The notes under the pieces are model-generated. The model saw only the letters and a program-made list of their open reading frames with translations. It ran no database searches and was not told where the DNA came from. A stretch of DNA of 64,000 bases from a virus (taxonomy: Duplodnaviria; Caudoviricetes), in the IMG/VR virus record IMGVR_UViG_3300001528_000360, positions 88,430 to 152,429 of that record. One strand, given 5' to 3'. Below are positions 8,549 to 64,000 of this stretch, one piece after another. Each line of letters starts with the position of its first letter. Position 1 is the first letter of the stretch. Made by a program: the position numbers and the translations under genes.

Positions 8549-11378
8549 TTAAAGTTTCTCTTTATAAAATGGATCTAAGAAGGATTTACCACTCTTCTTA
8601 AATGTTAACGGTGAAGTTAACTGTCTTCCTAAGAATTGAGAGGACAAACCAATCAAAACAGATTCATGTTTTTCTAATGCAGAACTAATTGTTAACATTT
8701 GTGTGTCAGCAATTGCATCATAACGCTTAAAATCGGGTCTCTCCAAAACATCATCAATAGAACGAATCAGAGGAGCAAGCATTACTTCAGCATGAACACT
8801 CTGTACATTAATTTTAGATTCAATTAACAAATCAAGAAATACTTGTGCAAGTTCATGAATATTAGTAATTCCGAGTTCTGCGCGTTTTTCTTTGGTATCG
8901 AGTAAACCCATTATCTGATACAGGGGTCTTGTTAATTCTGCATTTTCAATTTGTAATAAGAATAATTTTCCATCATCAGGAATATCATTAAATTTAATTT
9001 CTGTAAAATTCTCTTTCTGTTTCTTATTCTTTTTAATTAATTCTTTCAATTCAGGACTGATATACATTTCTTTTCCAGTTTTCTCAGTAATTTCGAAAAT
9101 TTCACCAGTCTTATTATTCTTAACACTAAAGAGAGTTAAGAATTCATTTAAATCACCTTCGTCAAGAGCACTAAGTGTAACAATATTATCGTTGATAATT
9201 AGCAATGAGTAATCTTCAATATCATAGTCTCCTTCAATGTTAATACTAATCTCATTAGCATTAAGATTAAAGAACTTATAGAAATTTTCATCAAATTCAA
9301 TAGTTTCTGAATTTGTTGTTAGCAAATGTTTAGAAGATAGAACTGACTGTGATAAAGGATTTGTTATTACCGCACCAGCGTATGAACCAATCCCAACGCC
9401 ACCACAATTAGTATGAAATAGTATTGGACCATAGCAATCTTTACAAATACCTTTATGAGATGCACATGTTATTGGAGATTTAACAAGAATCTTTTTACCA
9501 ATAACGAATCTATCATTTTCTGTTAAAACACTATAATTTCTCTGATTAGGAAGACGATACATTCTTCCAATTAATCTCTTGAAGTGTTCTTCAGTTTTAA
9601 TCTCAAATTCAATAGGATGTACTGATCTGCAACTTTTTTCATCATCTCTTAACTTCATATTGGATACGAGCAACATACACTTACGCGCGAAGTAGCCCGA
9701 TTTCTGAAAATGTTAACATAAGAACGCTACTTCCTATGCAAACTACTATTGTAGTTTCTTTATGTTTCCATAAAGCACAGACTATATCTTCAACCTATAT
9801 TAAGGTTGCCTCTCATTTCCATTGTCAATCACTTACAATGTACGGTTTGTCACCTAGTCGTTGAACCTTACTTATTATAAATAAGTCTTGGCTGCTGATT
9901 GTCTACAGCATTACTTGTTTAGAGTTTCCAGCAATTAAAGAGGTTATTTTTCGAACACATTGCTGTGAACGTGAGCTTTACCAAACCCATTACGTTTTTA
10001 TTAAAGATAAGAGATTTTCTTCCCGTTTATGTTCATATAGAGTCGTTACTTCTATACCGTCATATTTAATGACTGCTCTAATTTACATTAGAGACCAGAC
10101 TATATCTTCATCTTAATATAAAGATGTCTTCCATTTCCATCCACTTGGATGTACGTGCTAAGCACTAGTCGTTGAACCTTACTCTATATATAAGAGTCTT
10201 GGCTGCTGATTATCTTAATAAAGATTTTCCAGCATTTAAAAAGAATTCACTATAATATCACTATTATAGTGGGCTTAAAGTTAACCAATGGCGTCAATAT
10301 AATATCCAGTTACAGTTGACAATCCACCAACTACAAGATTTGAATTAATAGGAATAGGAATAGTTGCACCTTCAAGAGAAGGTTTCATTCCCATATTAAT
10401 ACTGAACTCCGAAAGCTGTTTCGTTACTACTTTATATTTCTATAAAGACTAGACTATATCATCACCCTTATATTCTGTTACCAAATATAAGGAGCCTACC
10501 ATTTCCACATTTAAGTGTACTCTACTTGGTTATTCCTATAAGTATTTCTCTTATAGTATCCTTTCGATAGTCGTTGAACCTTACTTATTATAAATAAGTC
10601 TTGGCTGCTGATTGTCTTTGGCTTTACCCATTAAGAGTTCCCAGCAATTAAGTAGGTTTTTCCAATGTATTACTACATCTCGGGACAAAATTTTTATTCT
10701 ATCCTTAATTCCAGTTCCGGATCTCAGCATAGGCTGAAGAACGTTTTCTTCTTGAGATAAGATTTGAATTTCTTCTCTCATTAATTTATGAAGTTGATCT
10801 TCAATTTCACTAGGTTGCATAGCAGGATCAAAATGAGTTCTAATGATTTCATTAAATCTTGGATTCTTATTAGCAACATCCATAAAGGATTCAATTGACA
10901 TAGAATTACCAAGAATAATATTAAACTCAGTAGAGATCTTACTAAGATTGAAAATCAAATCATGAATGATCTTATTTAATTTCTTATTAGAAATTTTATT
11001 TCTATAAGGAATAATAATTTTATTATCAATATAATTCTTAATATACTTAGATGAAATAGTATAGCAATCTACAAGGAATGTTTTATCAAGATGATCTACA
11101 GAGTCAAGAACGATAAGAGGTTCCCAGAAAATTAAGTTCGTTAAGAAATGTCTTAATTGTAATGAAAGAATCTCTGTATCAGATTCATGGAATTTGAAAT
11201 GAACCATACATTCACGAAGTTCTTTATGCTCAAATCCTGCTCTGAGATAATCAAAAATTGATTCAATAAAAATTTTGTATTCCTTTGGATCTTCCATCTT
11301 TTTCTCAATAATGTACATATTATCGTACAAGAAACTTATAATGTCTTGTACTTCCTTAGGGAGTTGCTCATTTGGCAT
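8549..11378 (-). CDS. rpoC: Phage multisubunit RNA polymerase, beta' C-terminal-half subunit (4 exons, ~669 aa)
   Basis: Exons 11378-10701, 10421-10284, 10023-9985, 9703-8549 join in frame; they restore YIDAIG|GRKSL..MG|KSGYFARK (bridge helix) plus SPITC..GICKDCYG (Zn) and SQSVLSSKH (trigger loop). Confidence 0.85.
9704..9984 (-). mobile_element. Group I intron, ORF-less (beta' gene, intron 3)
   Basis: P AATTGCTGGAAA, Q AATCAGCAG, R GTTCAACGACTA, S AAGATATAGTC; 5' exon ends U, intron ends G. Confidence 0.9.
10024..10283 (-). mobile_element. Group I intron, ORF-less (beta' gene, intron 2)
   Basis: P/Q/R/S core present; GGT|GGA junction restores the frame. Confidence 0.9.
10422..10700 (-). 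mobile_element. Group I intron, ORF-less (beta' gene, intron 1)
   Basis: P/Q/R/S core; P1 GGAU/GUCC; junction IKD|KQL. Confidence 0.88.
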
Positions 11379-20871: not shown

Positions 20872-20988
20872 TTTAATTCCTCCTTTCTAACAAAAAAATA
20901 TATGATGAAAGAGAATTTACTCTTTCATCATATATTATAAATAGGTTGGAATGCTTATTAAGTTTTATAAAATTGCATTATACAGCTC

Positions 20989-21085
20989 TGATACTATTTA
21001 GTTGATTGATTCATTTTGATTCTTTGATACTATACACAATAATGATTCATTATTTAAGATTGATACTTTTATTCATAATGATTTA
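20989..21085. repeat. 18-nt-period alternating-motif array 2 (5 units plus degenerate terminal motif)
   Basis: TGATACTAT-N9-TGATTCATT-N9 with exact 18-nt spacing; ends TGATTTA. Confidence 0.9.
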
Positions 21086-47432: not shown

Positions 47433-49347
47433 ATGCTCTTCAAGACAAATCAACGAGAAAAATATGTCGATCAAACAAAGAAAATTCCAATTAAATTTGA
47501 CATCAGTATGTTGAATATGTTTATTGGTTTCATATTTAAGAAATCTGTTCAGATTACAAGAAAATCATTAATGAATATGAAACGATTATTTGCTGTAATT
47601 GATGAATCTATTTATGAAAATAGTGATCAGTTACAAGCAAGAATTGAATTTATTAATAAAGCTCTTGAAGCTAGATTAGATAAGGGATTTGAAAATGATG
47701 AAATGATTATCAATTATTGTAAATCAGATGTTTATGATAAAGACAATCAAGACATTATTAATAATATTCCTATATACACTAGGATTAATTATGAGGAAAT
47801 TAAATATATAAATAAATGTATTGAGGATAGACTTCAGTATTATTATTTATATTATTATAAGGATGCCATTTATGAAACCATAGAAAGACTTGACAGTGGT
47901 GATTATAAGTCTTTCTATGAGATCAATAATAAAATGGCTAGTATTTGCACTGATTTAATTAATAGAATTCGAAATAGTAAATCAGTCGATACGGAAGATC
48001 AATTTTGTTTAAGTGATGAAAACTTTGACTCTAATGTATTAGATATTGTAGAAAAACTTCAGAATCCATCTCGTATTATACGAACAGGTATTCAGAAATT
48101 AAATGAGATTCTTTCACCTGGGTTAATGAGCAGTAGATTATACATGTTTCTCGGATTGCCAGGTGGTTGGAAATCTGGTATGCTTCTTAAAATTATTAGA
48201 GATACGAAAATGTATAATCGAGATATTCAACCAAAGAAACCAGGTAAGCATCCATGTGCATTATTAATAACTATGGAGAATGAAGTTGCAGAAACAGTTG
48301 AAAGATTATTCAATATGTCTGTTTCAAATTCTAATATCAGAGATTATACTCCAAAGCAAGTATTAAAAATGATTAAAGACTCAGGAGAATTAACAGTAAC
48401 TAATGATAATGGTATTGATATTGTCATTAGATATTATCCTAATAGATCTATTGATACTAGTGATTTATATACTATTATTGATGATCTTGCAGATGATGGT
48501 AAAGAAGTCATATTATTAGCATTAGACTATGTTAAAAGAATTCGTCCTGCAGAAAAAGGAAAAGATGAAAAAGAAGAATTAAAAAATATTACTAATGAAT
48601 TAAAATCATTAGCTATTGATTATGATATACCAGTTGTATCAGCGCATTAAATAAGGTGCCATAATATAGTGATATATTATGAAAACTTTCCTAATTGCTG
48701 GAACCTCTCACATGAGACAATCAGCAGCCAAGACTCTTTAATGAGTAAGGTTCAACGACTAGTGCTTAGCACGTACATCTAAGTAGATGGAAATGGAAAG
48801 CAACCTTTCAATAATATTATTAAAAAGTTGAAGATATAGTCTCATCTCTAATATAAAAATTAGAGCAGTTCATAATGGAACGCATATAGAGTAACGACCT
48901 ATATGGAAGATAATGCAATTAAATAGATCTGGTGCGTCAGTAGTTGATGCTGCAATGCAAGCAAATAAAGAAGATCTTGGTCGTTTCTTAGGAAGATCTA
49001 ACGTGGGCAGTGCCTGGGAAGTGATAGAGAACACAGATGTTGCAATCATTATTAACGTAGAAAAGAAACGACAAACTGGTCAATACTATTTGACATTTAA
49101 ACGTGTAAAAATTAGATATAAAGATCTATCAGAAATCAGTTATTTTAATCATCCGTTTAATCCTAATAATAAGATGCAACTTGAAGATGATCTTTTACTT
49201 GATCATTCTTTATCTGAAGATAGTTTAGTATCTGATTTTGATGCTGTGGATTTATTAAATAAGAAAGGTAAACGTACTGCAACAGAAAGAGAAACAGTTG
49301 CTGATGAAGATGTCTTCTTATTTAATAATGCAATTAATAAAAATTAA
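47433..49347 (+). CDS. dnaB: DnaB-like replicative helicase (2 exons, ~548 aa)
   Basis: GLPGGWKS, TMEN, LDYV; exons 47433-48647 and 48916-49347 restore PVVSAH|QLNRS. Confidence 0.9.
48648..48915 (+). mobile_element. Group I intron, ORF-less (dnaB)
   Basis: AATTGCTGGAA, AATCAGCAG, GTTCAACGACTA, AAGATATAGTC; U|...G junctions. Confidence 0.92.
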
Positions 49348-56520: not shown

Positions 56521-59500
56521 TTGGAAGACAACGTACAGAAGTTCATAGATGATAAGATAGAACACATCGAAAGTGATATAAAGAAAATTCAGGTTAAGCC
56601 TGGAATGTATATCGCAGAAATAGGTGCTAATGGTGCATTGCATCTCTGTAAAGAATTAATTAATAATGCAATTGATGAATGTATTAATAAAAATTCTCCT
56701 GCTGATACAATTGATGTATTTCTAGATGAAGGAGAAAATGAAATTACAGTTTCAGACAACGGGCGAGGAATTCCATTTGAAAATTTAATTATTGTATGTA
56801 CTACATTACAATCAGGAAGTAAATTTACACGAGAAGGTGCAGGATCTTCGAGTGCAGGCGAAAACGGTAAACTTCAATGCTGTTGTAAAACTCTCTTAAT
56901 TGCTGGAAAATCTATAATAGATAATCAGCAGCCAAGACTCTATATAGAGTAAGGTTCAACGACTAGTCATTATGACGTACATTCAAGTGAATGGAAATGG
57001 AGAGCAACTTTTATAAGTTGAAGATATAGTCTGATCTCTATAGAAATATAGAGCAGTTCATAAGAGAACGACACAAGAGTAACGATCTTGTGTGAACGAG
57101 AATGGTCGGACTCACAGCAGTAAATAGTCTATCTCACAAATTTGAAATTATATCTTATAGATATGGTGAAAAAGGGAAAGTATCATTTACTGAAGGTGAA
57201 TTAATTGATCAATCAGTTACTAAGATTAAGAATAAAGATAAGCATGGTTCAACTTTTATTATGCAACCTTCTAGGGAGTATATGGGTCAAGACTGTGATA
57301 TTAGTTCAGATAATCTTATTAGCTGGATTGAAAAAATTGTATATTTATTACCTTCTAATATTAAGTTAAATCTTAGTATTAAGAAGAAAGGTAAAGAATC
57401 TTTAGTTAACAAAAAGTATAGTAATAAAAGAGGACTCTATGACTTAGTAAATAAGATGTGTCAAAGACCGCTTTTAGATCCAATATCTTTTATTCAAACA
57501 ATGAGAACGAAAGAAAAAGTTCATGATAGATTGATTGATAGATTTATTGGACTTGAAGTGGCTTTTACATATAATTCTAATAGCGTAGAGTTTGAAAGTG
57601 AATCTTTTTGTAATTTCGTTAATACCTTCGATGGTTAAAACTAAGCCCACTATAATAGTGATATTATAGTGAATTCTTCTTAAATGCTGGAAAATCTATA
57701 ATAGATAATCAGCAGCCAAGACTCTTATATAGAGTAAGGTTCAACGACTAGTCATTATGACGTACATTCAAGTGAATGGAAATGGAAGACATCTTTATAT
57801 TAAGATGAAGATATAGTCTGGTCTCTAATGTAAATTAGAGCAGTTCTTAAGTGAACGATATGAGATTAACGAACTCATATGAACATTAACGGGTGTTCAT
57901 GTAGATGCTGTTAAAACAGGTATTCTACAGTATTTAACGAAACAAGCAAAAGATTCTTTATCTGAAAGAGAAGCAAAGAAACTTGATATTACTTTTAGTG
58001 ATGCATCTCAAGGATTATTCTTAGCTGTTTATTTAAGCACTGATTATAATCCTCAGTTTGCGTCACAGATTAAATCTAAGATGTCTAGTAATGAGTTTTT
58101 CAAACCATTACGTGAAATGACATATAGAGCATTAACAGAATATTTTAATAAGAATCCTAAAGATCTTAAGAAGATTATTGATCGAGTAAAAACAAATGCA
58201 AAAGCTCGTATTGAATCAACTAAAGTTCGTAATTCTGTTATTCGTGGTGAAACCACTAATTTTGAAGAACATCTAATGGAAAACTTTATTCCTGCAAATA
58301 ATCGTGGAAGAAATGATTATAGAGAACTCATCATAATCGAGGGTCGCAGTGCACGAGGTTCCGCTGAAACAGGCAGATTTGATCGTGACACACAGGCAAT
58401 TTTTAGTATTAGAGGAGTTCCATTAAATGCATTTGGTTTAAACATTGATAAGGTTCTTCAGAATACTGAATTTAATAATTTAATTAAAATATTGGGATGT
58501 AATTGCGGCAGTCGTTTTGATATGTCTAAGTTAAAATATAATAAGATTATATTGATGGCTGACGCGGACAGTGATAAAGTCTTGTCACTTAACCTCCTTA
58601 ATTGCTGGAAAATCCTTAGAGCCTAAAGTAATAAAATAATTCTTTAGGATTGGATAATCAGCAGCTAATTATTCGATTTTGTTAAGAAATAAAATATAAA
58701 AGTTGGTGATAGAATAAAATGAGATTAGAAAAAATTATATTTATCAATGGAAATAAAACAACTTATAAGGTTACTTCTGATGGGAAAGTGTTTAATTATA
58801 AAACAAATAAATATCTTTCACCATCATACAATCATAAAGGCTATAAAATGGTTGTATTATATGTTGATGGTGAGCCAATAACAAGAACTATTCATAAATT
58901 AGTAGCTTTAGCTTTTATACCAAATCCAGATAATTTACCTGTTGTAAATCATATTAATGGTGTTAAGACAGATAATAATTATACTAATTTAGAATGGTGT
59001 ACATATCAATACAATACTAGACATGCTTGGAAAACCGGACTAACAAAAGCTTTACGAGGATCAATTAATGGACATTCAAAATATAATGATGATCAAATTA
59101 TCAAAGTATGTGAAATGTTAGCTGATAATAAACCTCTTAAAGAAATAAAAAAAGAAACCGGTGTAAAAGGTGATACAATTACCAAAATATTATATCACAA
59201 TCAATGGCCAGATATAAGTTGTAAATATAAATTTGATAAAGATTATTATAAAAGTTTATTAAAATCTGTAGATGCTGATCTTGAGCGTAAAATAGAAAAT
59301 TGTTTATTATCTGGTATTCTTAAAGAAAAAGATATAAAAAAGAAATTAAACATTCCAGATAATAAATCAATACATTCAGCATATAAAAGATTAAAATCTA
59401 AGCACAAATTAACAAAATCGAATAAAAGTTCAACGACTATCGAAAACGATGATCTCTATACAATAGAGATTCATTAAGTGAGTAGATTACACTCAAGTGA

Positions 59501-60451
59501 GTGGAAATGGGAGGCAACCTTCTTAAATATTTAAGAAGGTTGAAGATATAGTCTAAACTATATAGAAATATATAGCAGTTCTTAAATGAACGGTATAAGA
59601 GTAACGATCTTATATGAATATATTTGGGATATAATATCACATCCTTATTATGTGCATTCTTTATGACCCATTTACCTGAGATTGTGAAGGATGGGAGACT
59701 ATATAAATCTGTATCTCCATTATATCGTATTAAGAGTAAATATAAAGAGTTTATTCTTAATAAGAAAGAGTATGTTGAAATTTTTGAAAGACAGGTTAGA
59801 GATAACTTATCCGTCATGAATCCTTCTACTAAGAAGATGTATACAGATACTGAACTTCAACATGTTCTTATGGTTAATAGAAATTATCTTGAAGAATTGA
59901 TTAGATTATCTAATCGTGTAGTAATTAATCCGACTGTTCTTGAATATATCTTAATTCATCGTAAGGAAAAGAATTTCTATAAAGAATTTAGAAAAGAATT
60001 TCCTGAATTAATAATAGATGATGATAATGTCTTAACTGGTATTTATGAAGGACGTTATCAGATTCTTATTATGGATAAAATTTTCGAGAAAAGAATCAGT
60101 CAATTAGAAGAATTTATTAATGATGAAAATCGTCATATGTATTTTAATGTCTTTGAAAAATCTCCTAATGGAAATATTGATAAAGGGGTAATGTCTTTAG
60201 GACAATTTTTGACTTTAGCTCAAAAATATCAACCTATTATAAAGACTCGTTATAAGGGAATCGGTGAGTTGAACCCTAAAGATTTAAGAGATAATACTCT
60301 TGATCCTAGACATCGTATTTTAATTAGGTTGACTATGAGTGATTTAGAGAGAGATTTAGAGAAGTTTAATATTTTACACGGTGATGATTCATCTGAAAGA
60401 AGACTTCTTATGGAGCACTTTAAGATTGATCGTGATGACCTCGACAATTAA
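56521..60451 (+). CDS. gyrB: Type IIA topoisomerase/gyrase subunit B (4 exons, ~795 aa)
   Basis: PGMYI, ELINNAIDE, DNGRGIP, GENG|VG, DG|GVH, EGRSA, ADADSD|G, RYKGIGE; exons 56521-56868, 57105-57635, 57892-58575, 59627-60451. Confidence 0.93.
56869..57104 (+). mobile_element. Group I intron, ORF-less (gyrB intron 1)
   Basis: P/Q/R/S core; in-frame junction. Confidence 0.9.
57636..57891 (+). mobile_element. Group I intron, ORF-less (gyrB intron 2)
   Basis: P/Q/R/S core; GGT|GGT junction. Confidence 0.9.
58576..59626 (+). mobile_element. Group I intron with HNH gene (gyrB intron 3)
   Basis: P ~58600, Q ~58656, R ~59428, S ~59543; splits the TOPRIM DxDxD|G motif. Confidence 0.9.
58719..59477 (+). 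CDS. Intron-encoded HNH homing endonuclease
   Basis: IHKLVALAFIPNP..VNHINGVKTDN..NLEWCT. Confidence 0.92.
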   Translation: MRLEKIIFINGNKTTYKVTSDGKVFNYKTNKYLSPSYNHKGYKMVVLYVDGEPITRTIHKLVALAFIPNPDNLPVVNHINGVKTDNNYTNLEWCTYQYNTRHAWKTGLTKALRGSINGHSKYNDDQIIKVCEMLADNKPLKEIKKETGVKGDTITKILYHNQWPDISCKYKFDKDYYKSLLKSVDADLERKIENCLLSGILKEKDIKKKLNIPDNKSIHSAYKRLKSKHKLTKSNKSSTTIENDDLYTIEIH

Positions 60452-60465
60452 AAGGAGAAATTAAC

Positions 60466-60768
60466 ATGGATACATTTGATCAGGCAAGAGCTAAGATGGT
60501 ATATGAACAAGATGAATTAGTTAGACATCTTGCTGAATGTACAGGAAAAGAGATTTATGAATCTGCTTTCACAATTGCTACTTATTCTAAGATTTTTAAT
60601 ATCTTATATCATAATGAGATTAAGTGTAATTATTTAGCAGATTTGATTCTCTGTAATGATAATTTAGTTGGTATGTTAACAGCTGACTATGTAAATGAAG
60701 GATTCAATGGTTATACACGACTAACAGAATTCCTTAAGAATAAAATTGCAGAACTTCATCCTGTATAA
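60466..60768 (+). CDS. Hypothetical protein
   Basis: 100-aa ORF, AAGGAG RBS. Confidence 0.7.
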   Translation: MDTFDQARAKMVYEQDELVRHLAECTGKEIYESAFTIATYSKIFNILYHNEIKCNYLADLILCNDNLVGMLTADYVNEGFNGYTRLTEFLKNKIAELHPV

Positions 60769-60779
60769 AAAATAAATTT

Positions 60780-60814
60780 TTATAGGTAAGCTTGAAATAT
60801 AGCTTACCTATAAA
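60780..60814 (+). terminator. Intrinsic terminator upstream of array 3
   Basis: TATAGGTAAGCT...AGCTTACCTATA hairpin. Confidence 0.7.
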
Positions 60815-60833
60815 AATTAATTAATTTTTAAAG

Positions 60834-60843
60834 TATATATTAT
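60834..60843 (+). promoter_or_regulatory. Putative early promoter TATATATTAT
   Basis: One of 16 intergenic copies, all oriented toward downstream genes. Confidence 0.7.
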
Positions 60844-60850
60844 AATAGTA

Positions 60851-61166
60851 TAAATCAAGAGTAATTAATTGTATCATAGACCATAAATGAATCATATGCT
60901 GGTATTGTATCATAACTCATAAATGAATCATAAAAAATAATAGTATCAAAGCCAATAAATGAATCAAGTAAACTAATAGTATCATCGACAAATAATGAAT
61001 CAAAGTCCCTAATAGTATCACAATTACTCAATGAATCAGATAGCAATACAGTATCAAAACGTAAGAATGAATCAAAAGGGATTATAAAGTATCAGAACGT
61101 AATAATGAATCATTATTATCAATAGTATCAAATTTGTAAAATGAATCAAAACTAAATATAGTATCA
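60851..61166. repeat. 18-nt-period alternating-motif array 3 (17 units plus degenerate terminal motif), inverted relative to arrays 1 and 2
   Basis: ATAGTATCA / AATGAATCA alternate with unique ~9-nt spacers. Confidence 0.95.
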
Positions 61167-61225
61167 TTTACCACAAATGTATTTTTACATTAAAAAATTT
61201 ATTTATTTGAAAGGAATTAACAACA

Positions 61226-62179
61226 ATGGAAACTACTGGAAAGATTAAGCTCTTTAGCGATTCTGATCTTGATGGCATCAGCTGTGGAATTCTTGCCAAG
61301 TTTGTTTTTGGTGAGGAACGTGTTGATACGATGTTTTGTACTCCGAAGGATATTAATCAGAGACTAATGTCTTTTATTGAAAAGGAAGAGTACAATAAAT
61401 ATGATAAGGTCTTTATTACTGATCTTGTTATTAAGCCTGAAACGGCTGCAAAGATTGATAGCATTCCTGGCTTTAAGTTTAAGCTCTTTGATCATCATAA
61501 GTCTAATTATACTAATAGTAAGTATACTTGGGTTACTGTTAGTGAAAATTTTGTAGGACGTAAAACTTGTGGAACAGAACTTTTCTATAATCATCTTCTT
61601 GAATACTATATTGAAGTTCGTAATGATTATATTGAAAAGTATGTTGAGTATGTTCGTCTTTGGGATACATGGGAATGGCCTTCTGCCGGTGCAGATGGTA
61701 TTTATGCAAAGAAGCTTAATACTCTTCTTTCTATGTATAGCAATACAAAGTATATGAACAGTATTATTATTCCTCTTGAGAATAATTCTACCACTTTCAT
61801 CAGTGATAGTGATGAAGAGATTCTTAAGGTAGAGGAAAATCGTAAGAATCGTTACATTAAGCAGAAGTCCAGAAATATTCGTGTAATGGAAGTAAGTGGA
61901 CATAAGCTTGGTTTCGTATTTGCAGAAAATTATATTTCTGAACTTTGTAATTACATGCTTAAGAATATTGAGGGTGTTGAAATTGCAGCAGCTATCAATG
62001 CTGATGCCCATGTTGTTTCTCTTAGAACAACGGAAGCTACTGGTATTGATGTGTCTGAATTTGCAAAGACATTTACTCCTCAGGGTGGTGGACATCCTCT
62101 TAGTGCAGGCTTTGTATTTAATACAGAGTATGAAACTAAGTTTGTACAGGATATCTTCCAGACCTATTCTAAGGAATAA
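61226..62179 (+). CDS. DHH-family phosphoesterase (NrnB-like)
   Basis: DLDG, ITD, DHH, CGT, GGGHPLSAG motifs. Confidence 0.9.
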   Translation: METTGKIKLFSDSDLDGISCGILAKFVFGEERVDTMFCTPKDINQRLMSFIEKEEYNKYDKVFITDLVIKPETAAKIDSIPGFKFKLFDHHKSNYTNSKYTWVTVSENFVGRKTCGTELFYNHLLEYYIEVRNDYIEKYVEYVRLWDTWEWPSAGADGIYAKKLNTLLSMYSNTKYMNSIIIPLENNSTTFISDSDEEILKVEENRKNRYIKQKSRNIRVMEVSGHKLGFVFAENYISELCNYMLKNIEGVEIAAAINADAHVVSLRTTEATGIDVSEFAKTFTPQGGGHPLSAGFVFNTEYETKFVQDIFQTYSKE

Positions 62180-62323
62180 GCATAAAAAAGAAAGTAGAGT
62201 TTTATCTCTACTTTCTTTTTTTTATATTTTTTAACTAAGATTTAAGATATATATTATTATAGTATAAAGCAATAAGGCTTTCAACAAAACTTTATAGTAA
62301 TAAAATACGAGGTGATTAGAATT

Positions 62324-63655
62324 ATGAAAGACAAATCAAATAAAGTTAGTGTAGAAACTTATAGTTCTAATGTAGAAAATGTAAATATAGCAGATGCTTG
62401 CTCATCATACATGCAAATCTTTGGAGCCAATACAAATTTAGCCCGTCATTTACCAGTAGTGCTAGATGGCCTAAAGCTTGGTGAAAGGAGAATCCTTTAT
62501 ACAATGTATAAAATGGGATTAAGGTATGATGGGGAAACGACAAAGGTTGCAAGTATTGTAGGTAACGTATTGTCTTTGCATTAACATGTGAGTGCCGTAT
62601 AATAGTGATATTATATGTAAAACTTCCCTAATTACTGGAAACTCTAAACAGGTAAAGCTGTAGATAATCAGCAACCAAGACTTATTTATAATAAGTAAGG
62701 TTCAACGACTAGTCTTTATGACGTACATCTAAGTAGATGGAAATGGGAAGCAACTTAATAAGTTGGTGATATAGTCTAATCTCTATAGAGATATAGAGCA
62801 GTTCATAAGAGAACGCATATAGTGTAACGAGCTATATGGAATATGAATGCCACACGGTGATTCTGCTGTTGAAGATACGTTAGTTAAACTTGCTCAACCT
62901 TGGAATAATATCCAATGTACTATTGTCGGTTCAGGTAACTTTGGTTCTGTTGCTGGAGCTAGTGCCGCCGCTGGTCGATACATTGAAGCTAAATTATCTT
63001 ATTATGCATATAAATGTTTCTTTGAAGAGTATGATGATAAGATTGTAAATACTAAATTAAACTATCTTGGCAATATGCTTGAACCAGAATTTCTTCCTGC
63101 TAAATACCCAAATGTTATGATCAATAACACGTTTGGCATTGGTTACGGCATTTCCACGAGTATATGCACATATAATCTTAAGGAAGTACTTGAAGCTACT
63201 ATTAGTTTAATGGAAGATCCTGATCAAGATGTTATTATGTTATATCCTGATTCATCTACTGGTGCAAGTATAGTAGACGAGGGACAGTTCGAGCAGATTT
63301 GTCGAACTGGTAAGGGTAGATTTAAGATGAGAGGTGTTATTGAAATTGATGAAGATAATAATATCCTCAATATTAAATCAACTCCTCTTATGACTTCTTG
63401 GGAAAAAATTAAAAGACCATTATTTGAATTATTAAATGATGGTAAAACTAACTTAATGAAAGATTTTAAAGATCTTTGTGAATTTAATACAATGCATTAT
63501 CAAATCTTTCTTAAGAAAGAAGTTGATCCATATAGTGTTGTTAGTATGATTTATGCTAAGACACAAATGGAAAAAACATTCAATGTTAACTTTAAGTTAA
63601 TCGAAGATTGGGCTGACCAAGATTATAATATTAAATCTGTATTACAGACGTGGAT
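62324..63655 (+). CDS. gyrA: Type IIA topoisomerase/gyrase subunit A, 3'-truncated (exons 62324-62581, 62850-63655)
   Basis: DGLKLGERRILY, KVASIVG, LH|PHGDSA, GNFGS, AAAGRY (catalytic Tyr), EPEFLP. Confidence 0.92.
62582..62849 (+). mobile_element. Group I intron, ORF-less (gyrA intron 1)
   Basis: P/Q/R/S core; junction restores HPHGD. Confidence 0.9.
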
Positions 63656-64000
63656 TGAAAATTAGTCCCTATAAATAGTAATATTTATAGAAAACTTCCC
63701 TAAATGCGGGAAACTCTCGTTAGGCTATAACTACTAAATCTATATAGTAATATATAGATGGCAATGGGTAATTCCAAAGGTATAGTAATAAGGTTATAGA
63801 TAGAGACAATCCGCAGCTAAAGATTCATAAAAATATTAAATAAAAAAAACATTTTACAATTGTCATAAAAAATAATAAAGGAGGTGAAATATATGTTAAC
63901 AATTAATGTATGGAGATCAATTATTATAAATGGTATTTTAACAAATTATCTTGTATCATCAGATGGTAATATATATAGTAAGAGTATGGATAAAATTATG
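63656..64000 (+). mobile_element. Group I intron (gyrA intron 2), runs off the window
   Basis: P1 GGAU/GUCC, P AAATGCGGG, Q AATCCGCAG. Confidence 0.8.
63893..64000 (+). CDS. Intron-encoded ORF, probably an HNH endonuclease (truncated)
   Basis: AAGGAGG RBS; IIING..YLVSSDGNIYS resembles the N-termini of the 35208 and 58719 HNH proteins. Confidence 0.7.
   Translation, partial: MLTINVWRSIIINGILTNYLVSSDGNIYSKSMDKIM

Follow-up and report, generated by a model that had tools for sequence, protein, structure and literature searches.

A dual-repeat TIGR array lies between a predicted early promoter and a DHH phosphoesterase gene in an uncultured AR9-like giant phage

The DNA analysed here (the window, 64,000 nucleotides) is the final 64 kb of a 152,429-nt IMG/VR record, referred to as G000, which was estimated by CheckV to be about 62% complete. 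The record belongs to an uncultured AR9-like giant phage that is a distant relative of AR9 and PBS1; the best matches of its helicase were those of AR9 and PBS1, with 33% identity, and an RNAP beta-like segment was found in it. On the plus strand of the window a repeat array, designated array 3, is located upstream of a gene for a DHH phosphoesterase. The features of this locus are listed below.

60466-60768, plus strand: open reading frame of 100 amino acids, upstream of the first hairpin
60775-60818, plus strand: intrinsic-terminator hairpin with an 18-pair stem (-22.7 kcal/mol, z -4.5), closing the upstream unit
60834-60850, plus strand: AR9-type early (virion RNAP) promoter motif, consisting of TATATATTAT at 60834-60843, 5 nt and a conserved TA, with the predicted start at A60850
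60851-61179, plus strand: TIGR dual-repeat array 3, with 17 cores, nine 36-nt units and half-edge ends
61176-61191, plus strand: weak 6-bp A/U hairpin after array 3 (-3.7 kcal/mol, z +0.5); 133 of 200 shuffles folded as well
61226-62179, plus strand: DHH/DHHA1 phosphoesterase (NrnB-like) gene, without a promoter decamer of its own
62184-62221, plus strand: terminator with a 16-pair stem followed by a T run, the predicted end of a unit of array 3 and the DHH gene

The initial annotation of this DNA had placed the upstream terminator at 60780-60814, and the hairpin was confirmed with slightly wider limits. Its order of elements, with the decamer at 60834-60843, TAAATCA 7 nt later, then the array and then the DHH gene, was correct in all coordinates. 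Array 3 was identical in an independent assembly (Logan SRR19415686; L027, 99.4% identity), and it is therefore not an assembly artefact. A search for related loci with the DHH protein returned no relative, and a contig search with the DHH sequence returned only a 4.2-kb contig, from which the missing part of the genome was not recovered.

L027 carries an extra insert of about 1 kb (L027:783-1782) with a 231-aa HNH/NUMOD4 open reading frame, located within the topoisomerase B C-terminal gene. The insert is absent from the window, where the corresponding site (60258-60261) lies 600 nt upstream of array 3, and this homing-endonuclease element is thus a presence/absence polymorphism between L027 and the window. 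An HNH/NUMOD4 endonuclease open reading frame is present at 58719-59477, inside the topoisomerase gene region. Rfam, applied at gathering thresholds, detected seven group I introns and one tRNA, none of them on the arrays. The introns are situated at 9758-10705, 48636-48865, 56829-57840 and 62572-62798 of the window; the one at 62572-62798 is found just upstream of a topoisomerase A-like open reading frame (62847-63665) and about 400 nt downstream of the DHH gene.

The anatomy of array 3 can be read directly from its sequence. It contains 17 cores of the form G[AT]ATCA (GWATCA), with starts from 60871 to 61161 and the last core ending at 61166. GTATCA and GAATCA cores strictly alternate in steps of 18 nt, with a single step of 20 nt from 61069 to 61089. 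The repeating unit is 36 nt long and comprises two 9-nt repeats and two 9-nt spacers in the order edge repeat (AATGAATCA), spacer A, loop repeat ((W)ATAGTATCA) and spacer B. The 17 units that had been counted previously are indeed present as 17 cores, but with a unit of 36 nt they make up nine guide units. When the units were aligned in register, the repeats had an information content of about 2 bits, while that of the 9-nt spacers was about 0. Both repeats follow the pattern A-x-x-G-x-A-U-C-A, in which the first A and G.AUCA are invariant, and they have their terminal nucleotides in common, the trait required for a symmetric Tas dimer. The termini might be named box C and box D, by analogy only. 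[quoted passage not shown]

Three cores in register occurred 29 times in the window, compared with 0.00 times in 100 dinucleotide-preserving shuffles, so that the register lies far beyond chance. The RNA of array 3 was unstructured in comparison with shuffles (z +1.27), as a dual-repeat pre-tigRNA should be. The whole 152-kb record has only three such core clusters, all inside the window, the other two being the following.

2655-3088, minus strand: TIGR array 1, with the same repeats, all spacers different, and half-edge ends
20976-21084, minus strand: TIGR array 2, with 3 units, between two hairpins and upstream of an SbcC-like gene

All three arrays begin with AATCA, which is the last five bases of the edge repeat, and finish with AATG, its first four, and in each of them the motif strand is that of the flanking genes. 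Array 1 is followed by a strong terminator at 2610-2646 (-28.3 kcal/mol, z -8.2), and array 2 also has a strong terminator (-26.8 kcal/mol, z -4.4). The 44 spacers of the three arrays are all unique and none is common to two arrays, which includes the lack of common spacers in arrays 1 and 3 reported in the initial annotation.

These features were compared with TIGR-Tas, a class of RNA-guided systems described in 2025 (Faure et al. 2025, PMC12045711). A TIGR array is composed of two alternating repeats of 8-12 nt and 9-nt spacers in a 36-nt unit; a 5'-truncated edge repeat opens the array and a 3'-truncated edge repeat closes it, and a rho-independent terminator after the array is typical, not obligatory (PMC12045711). 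The synthetic tigRNA of TaTasR consists of 5+9+9+9+4 nt, with edge halves of 5 nt and 4 nt (PMC12045711 supplement). The half-edge split of the array, AAUCA...AAUG, is the same as that of the TaTasR tigRNA ends, where published tigRNAs are cut. A search for the present repeat cores in that paper's supplementary tables yielded nothing but plasmid and locus sequence unrelated to them.

The family link was established through 10 other IMG/VR phage records of 30-320 kb, which carry the same repeats according to an exact-pattern scan. Nine of these 10 relatives have exactly one gene above the cut-off of NCBIfam NF052498 ('TIGR-Tas system RNA-guided endonuclease'), with E values of 1e-45 to 1e-61; for the open reading frames beside an array the E values were 1e-44 to 1e-59. 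A tas gene was present in all five relatives that are at least 90% complete, and the sole relative without tas is 35% complete. The Tas proteins of the relatives also matched PDB chain 9mty, TasH chains and the TasH gene of Salicola phage CGphi29. In G002, G004, G005 and G007 an array immediately follows tas in the same orientation, which establishes GWATCA as the RNA sense. Further arrays occur 6-150 kb from tas in the relatives. In G005, which is the closest complete relative (45-70% protein identity to G000), 41 of the 50 recognised units are remote from tas.

Because of its anatomy, and because its repeats recur immediately behind tas in related phages, array 3 is a genuine dual-repeat TIGR array with nine small two-part guide RNAs. 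The role at the RNA level that the initial annotation had favoured is probable.

The nine Tas proteins of this clade have only a Nop-type core in common. Their N-terminal parts leave no room for an HNH or RuvC domain and Pfam detected no nuclease domain; they are accordingly TasA-like. The Tas of G005 (L018:868-2298, minus strand) possesses in addition a C-terminal extension of about 185 aa (L018:868-1422, residues about 293-477), which had no Pfam match and is absent from the other eight members. The GC-richer records (36-45% GC; L001, L003, L008 and L013, from G001, G006 and G010) mostly have a loop repeat ending in GTACCA and an edge repeat ending in AATCA, and this set is a variant repeat pair inside the same Tas clade.

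The decamer in front of array 3, TATATATTAT, occurs in 37 copies in the record, and 32 of them are situated in the intergenic sequence, which makes up about 12% of the total. For 26 copies a gene starts on the same strand within 150 nt, usually at a distance of 16-80 nt. The 32 intergenic copies agree in an extended consensus, in which a TA located 6-7 nt downstream is conserved, and the copy at array 3 agrees with this consensus at 24 of 29 positions. The early promoter of AR9, AAATATATATTAT-N6-G+1, was determined by dRNA-seq and primer extension and has been assigned to the virion RNAP (Lavysh et al. 2017, PMC5312081). The array 3 promoter matches the AR9 consensus at 12 of 13 positions, and its decamer is identical to the AR9 early promoter core. 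The recurrence of the decamer and its match to this mapped core bear out its earlier designation as a promoter motif. As with the AR9 early promoters (PMC5312081), the motif is intergenic, oriented towards genes and accompanied by a conserved position 6-7 nt downstream, and like AR9 the phage probably encodes a multisubunit RNAP, of which an RNAP beta-like segment is present in the record. Unlike in AR9, the conserved downstream element is the dinucleotide TA and not G, and the predicted +1 nucleotide at array 3 is A instead of G. By analogy with AR9, a distant relative with about 33% identity, we infer that array 3 is transcribed early.

The same motif is also associated with arrays and with tas in G005. 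One array of this phage, at 85.4 kb, begins 5 nt after TATATATTAT, and a copy of the decamer also precedes its tas operon by about 330 nt. In the window a full early-promoter motif at 62248-62257 directly follows the DHH terminator and precedes an open reading frame at 62312-62584. The early units in the DHH region thus appear to be tightly packed and insulated by hairpins.

Between array 3 and the DHH gene no credible terminator was found, only the hairpin of -3.7 kcal/mol. As the DHH gene also lacks its own decamer, array 3 and the DHH gene most likely form one transcription unit, predicted to end at 62184-62221. The early transcript or 5' leader proposed in the initial annotation remains the best reading of the sequence, with the array downstream of the promoter on the transcribed strand and no terminator before the DHH gene, while its transcription and early timing are proposed from the AR9 model.

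The gene order of G005 at this locus is the C-terminal part of topoisomerase B, a 100-aa small open reading frame, the DHH gene and a topoisomerase A part, with a ribosome binding site before the DHH gene. The 19-nt block of TATATATTAT and nine further bases is identical in G005, where it precedes the start codon of the DHH gene by about 30 nt, and no array is present there. Because G005 has the same promoter block before the DHH gene without an array, array 3 was interpreted as an insertion into an early 5' UTR. The promoter at 60834 would accordingly be the early promoter of the DHH gene, with array 3 as about 330 nt of inserted sequence immediately behind the predicted start at A60850. The G005 site syntenic to array 1 is also without an array. 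Conversely, two neighbouring genes of G000 are separated in G005 by an array cluster of 1.6 kb. No spacer was common to G000, G004 and G005. Array 3 is particular in that it lacks its own terminator and that the predicted primary 5' end nearly coincides with the end of a mature guide.

Taken as a whole, array 3 is probably a TIGR array in an early 5' UTR that supplies nine guides to a nuclease-less Tas. All five steps of the mechanism proposed for it are drawn by analogy with AR9 and the published TIGR systems. Early transcription would start at about 60850, 1-2 bases before the first half-edge repeat, and the transcript would cross array 3 into the DHH gene and stop at 62184-62221. A Tas dimer would bind each unit and cut the precursor in the middle of the edge repeats; for dual-repeat systems this cut is reported to be made by a conserved Tyr/His loop in Tas. 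Nine tigRNAs of 36 nt would be released, each with the order AAUCA, spacer A (9 nt), AUAGUAUCA, spacer B (9 nt) and AAUG. Each guide would lead a nuclease-less, TasA-type Nop-domain Tas to an 18-bp site made up of A and the reverse complement of B. Binding of Tas would then block transcription or another DNA transaction, rather than lead to cleavage. Repression of transcription in E. coli has been shown for MbTasA (bioRxiv 10.64898/2026.09.09.750476).

The target geometry, A plus the reverse complement of B, was derived from the TaTasR oligonucleotides. Targets of this form were sought in G000, G004 and G005 with the arrays masked, both within and between genomes, and no excess over five control geometries was present at 0-3 mismatches. 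The first unit of array 1 had a 17/18 match at 685-702 of the window, in a head-to-tail-domain gene (186-998), which is not significant, as the control geometries yielded similar single matches. For single 18-mers chance matches are expected in large public collections.

Neither Pfam Nop nor NF052498 detected a tas gene in the 152-kb record, about 62% of the genome, and a clade-specific profile built from the nine Tas proteins gave a best E value of 0.26 against all six-frame open reading frames of the 152 kb. The arrays might therefore be orphans or relics of a system that has lost tas, carried as passengers without an effector or served in trans by the Tas of a co-infecting relative. The negative result of all three methods is in line with this, as are the array positions, which are not conserved between relatives and point to a fast turnover. 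The record is, however, only about 62% complete, and one tas gene, accompanied by remote arrays, is present in each relative with a completeness of at least 90%. Furthermore, the 17 cores and both half-edge ends of array 3 are intact and identical in a second sample, unlike decaying sequence. Loss of tas is therefore considered unlikely, and the tas gene of the source phage presumably lies in the missing 38% or so of the genome. The confidence in a functional guide array is not higher mainly because this location of tas is deduced and not observed.

Two further explanations dispense with guides altogether. The RNA could be a sponge or decoy, as the initial annotation had suggested, in which the repeated AAUGAAUCA and AUAGUAUCA titrate a host RNA-binding protein or a defence sensor and the spacers are irrelevant. 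Many evenly spaced identical motifs on an unstructured and probably early RNA would suit such a function. We know of no host protein that recognises this motif, and a sponge would need neither half-edge ends nor an exact 36-nt grammar nor the proximity to tas in relatives, all of which are explained by a guide array with edge and loop repeats and unique spacers. A sponge or decoy is thus very improbable. The operator cluster downstream of the promoter, which had been offered as the alternative, belongs to a group of explanations at the DNA level that also includes iterons and a centromere-like site. Tandem short motifs in an intergenic position, in a neighbourhood of replication and repair genes, would be typical of a protein-binding DNA array. 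However, the period of 18 bp is out of helical phase and the repeats are asymmetric, and the arrays are bounded by a promoter, terminators and half repeats. The motif strand follows the tas strand in every tas-adjacent case and the flanking genes in the window, and the neighbouring genes code for topoisomerase, DHH and SbcC, with no Rep or Par gene consistently adjacent. As a DNA-level array would also leave the half-edge ends, the 36-nt grammar and the location of the same repeats directly downstream of tas in relatives unexplained, it is hardly to be expected here.

Among the known systems the guide array resembles FpTIGR-TasA of Flavonifractor plautii (PMC12045711) most directly in its alternating repeats of about 9 nt, 9-nt spacers, 36-nt units, truncated edge ends and location on a phage. 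The cognate proteins of the relatives likewise match NF052498 and have no nuclease domain detectable by Pfam. In contrast to FpTIGR-TasA, array 3 is not beside tas, and none is present in its 152-kb record. The repeat termini of array 3 (A..G.AUCA) also differ from the UG...CCA boxes of the published TasR arrays. Unlike the published grammar and arrays 1 and 2, array 3 lacks its own terminator. Its position within the 5' UTR of an early gene that codes for a protein is a further difference from FpTIGR-TasA. Both SpTasH (Salicola phage CGphi29) and TaTasR (PDB 9mty) can be aligned with the Nop-domain core of Tas from the relatives, but these two proteins cut DNA and possess nuclease domains of the HNH or RuvC type. 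By analogy, the phage most likely acts in the mode of the MbTasA and dead-TasR repressors, in which a nuclease-less Tas is combined with guide RNAs; those were tested in E. coli reporters. CRISPR arrays, including phage mini-arrays, similarly have interspaced repeats and unique spacers, and the transcription of a precursor that is cut into guides would be a parallel. A CRISPR array consists of one repeat of about 25-36 nt and spacers of about 30 nt, and array 3 does not conform to this, as it has two 9-nt repeats and split spacers of 9+9 nt that read both DNA strands.

The class of TIGR arrays has been known since 2025, and what is particular to this locus is that the array has been inserted between a gene and the conserved early promoter in front of it. 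The natural targets, promoters and array origins of TIGR-Tas are stated as open questions in the literature, and the published catalogues covered only the surroundings of tas genes. The locus offers a clear natural example of a guide array that is remote from any tas gene and coupled without intervening genes to a type of promoter for which the timing in AR9 has been measured, and G005 and G000 provide a before-and-after pair for an array insertion at the DHH gene. A tentative and rather doubtful generalisation is that the TIGR arrays of this clade are dispersible cassettes, which colonise existing transcription units far from tas and whose positions and spacers turn over completely between relatives with 45-70% protein identity. 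Array 3 would be an example in the 5' UTR of an early gene, and array 1 an example at the 3' end of an early operon. The position at a virion-RNAP promoter would place the guides among the first RNAs of infection, and expression of the DHH (NrnB-like) nuclease gene would be tied to the Tas-dependent cutting of its own leader. If this generalisation is true, it would give a handle on how TIGR arrays arise and spread, and on when and from which promoters they are expressed.

The transcription of array 1 may proceed from an early motif at 4124 on the minus strand. The AR9 late motif (AACA-N6-TA/G) was not convincingly present before arrays 1 and 2 on inspection by eye. A 266-aa open reading frame beside array 1 (4177-4977) was considered as Tas and rejected, as it had no PDB, Pfam or NCBIfam match. 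Array 2 contains an irregular unit (21012-21030, minus strand), in which the 'spacer' resembles the repeat core (AAGAATCAA) and the sub-spacing is 8+10 nt. Possibly this unit is a guide directed at the repeat; alternatively it is the scar of a duplication. The same type of irregularity, with CAGTATCAA, is kept in arrays of G003 and G005 (L004:49-72 and L006:3139-3162), while all other spacers differ. Array 2 may thus be the only one of the three arrays with a counterpart in relatives. Two loop-type repeats (ATAGTATCA), 18 nt apart and without an edge repeat between them, are present at 3448-3474 on the minus strand. They immediately precede a short acidic open reading frame and are upstream of array 1 by about 380 nt. 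This pair may represent either a mini-array that has degenerated or a site with a regulatory function.
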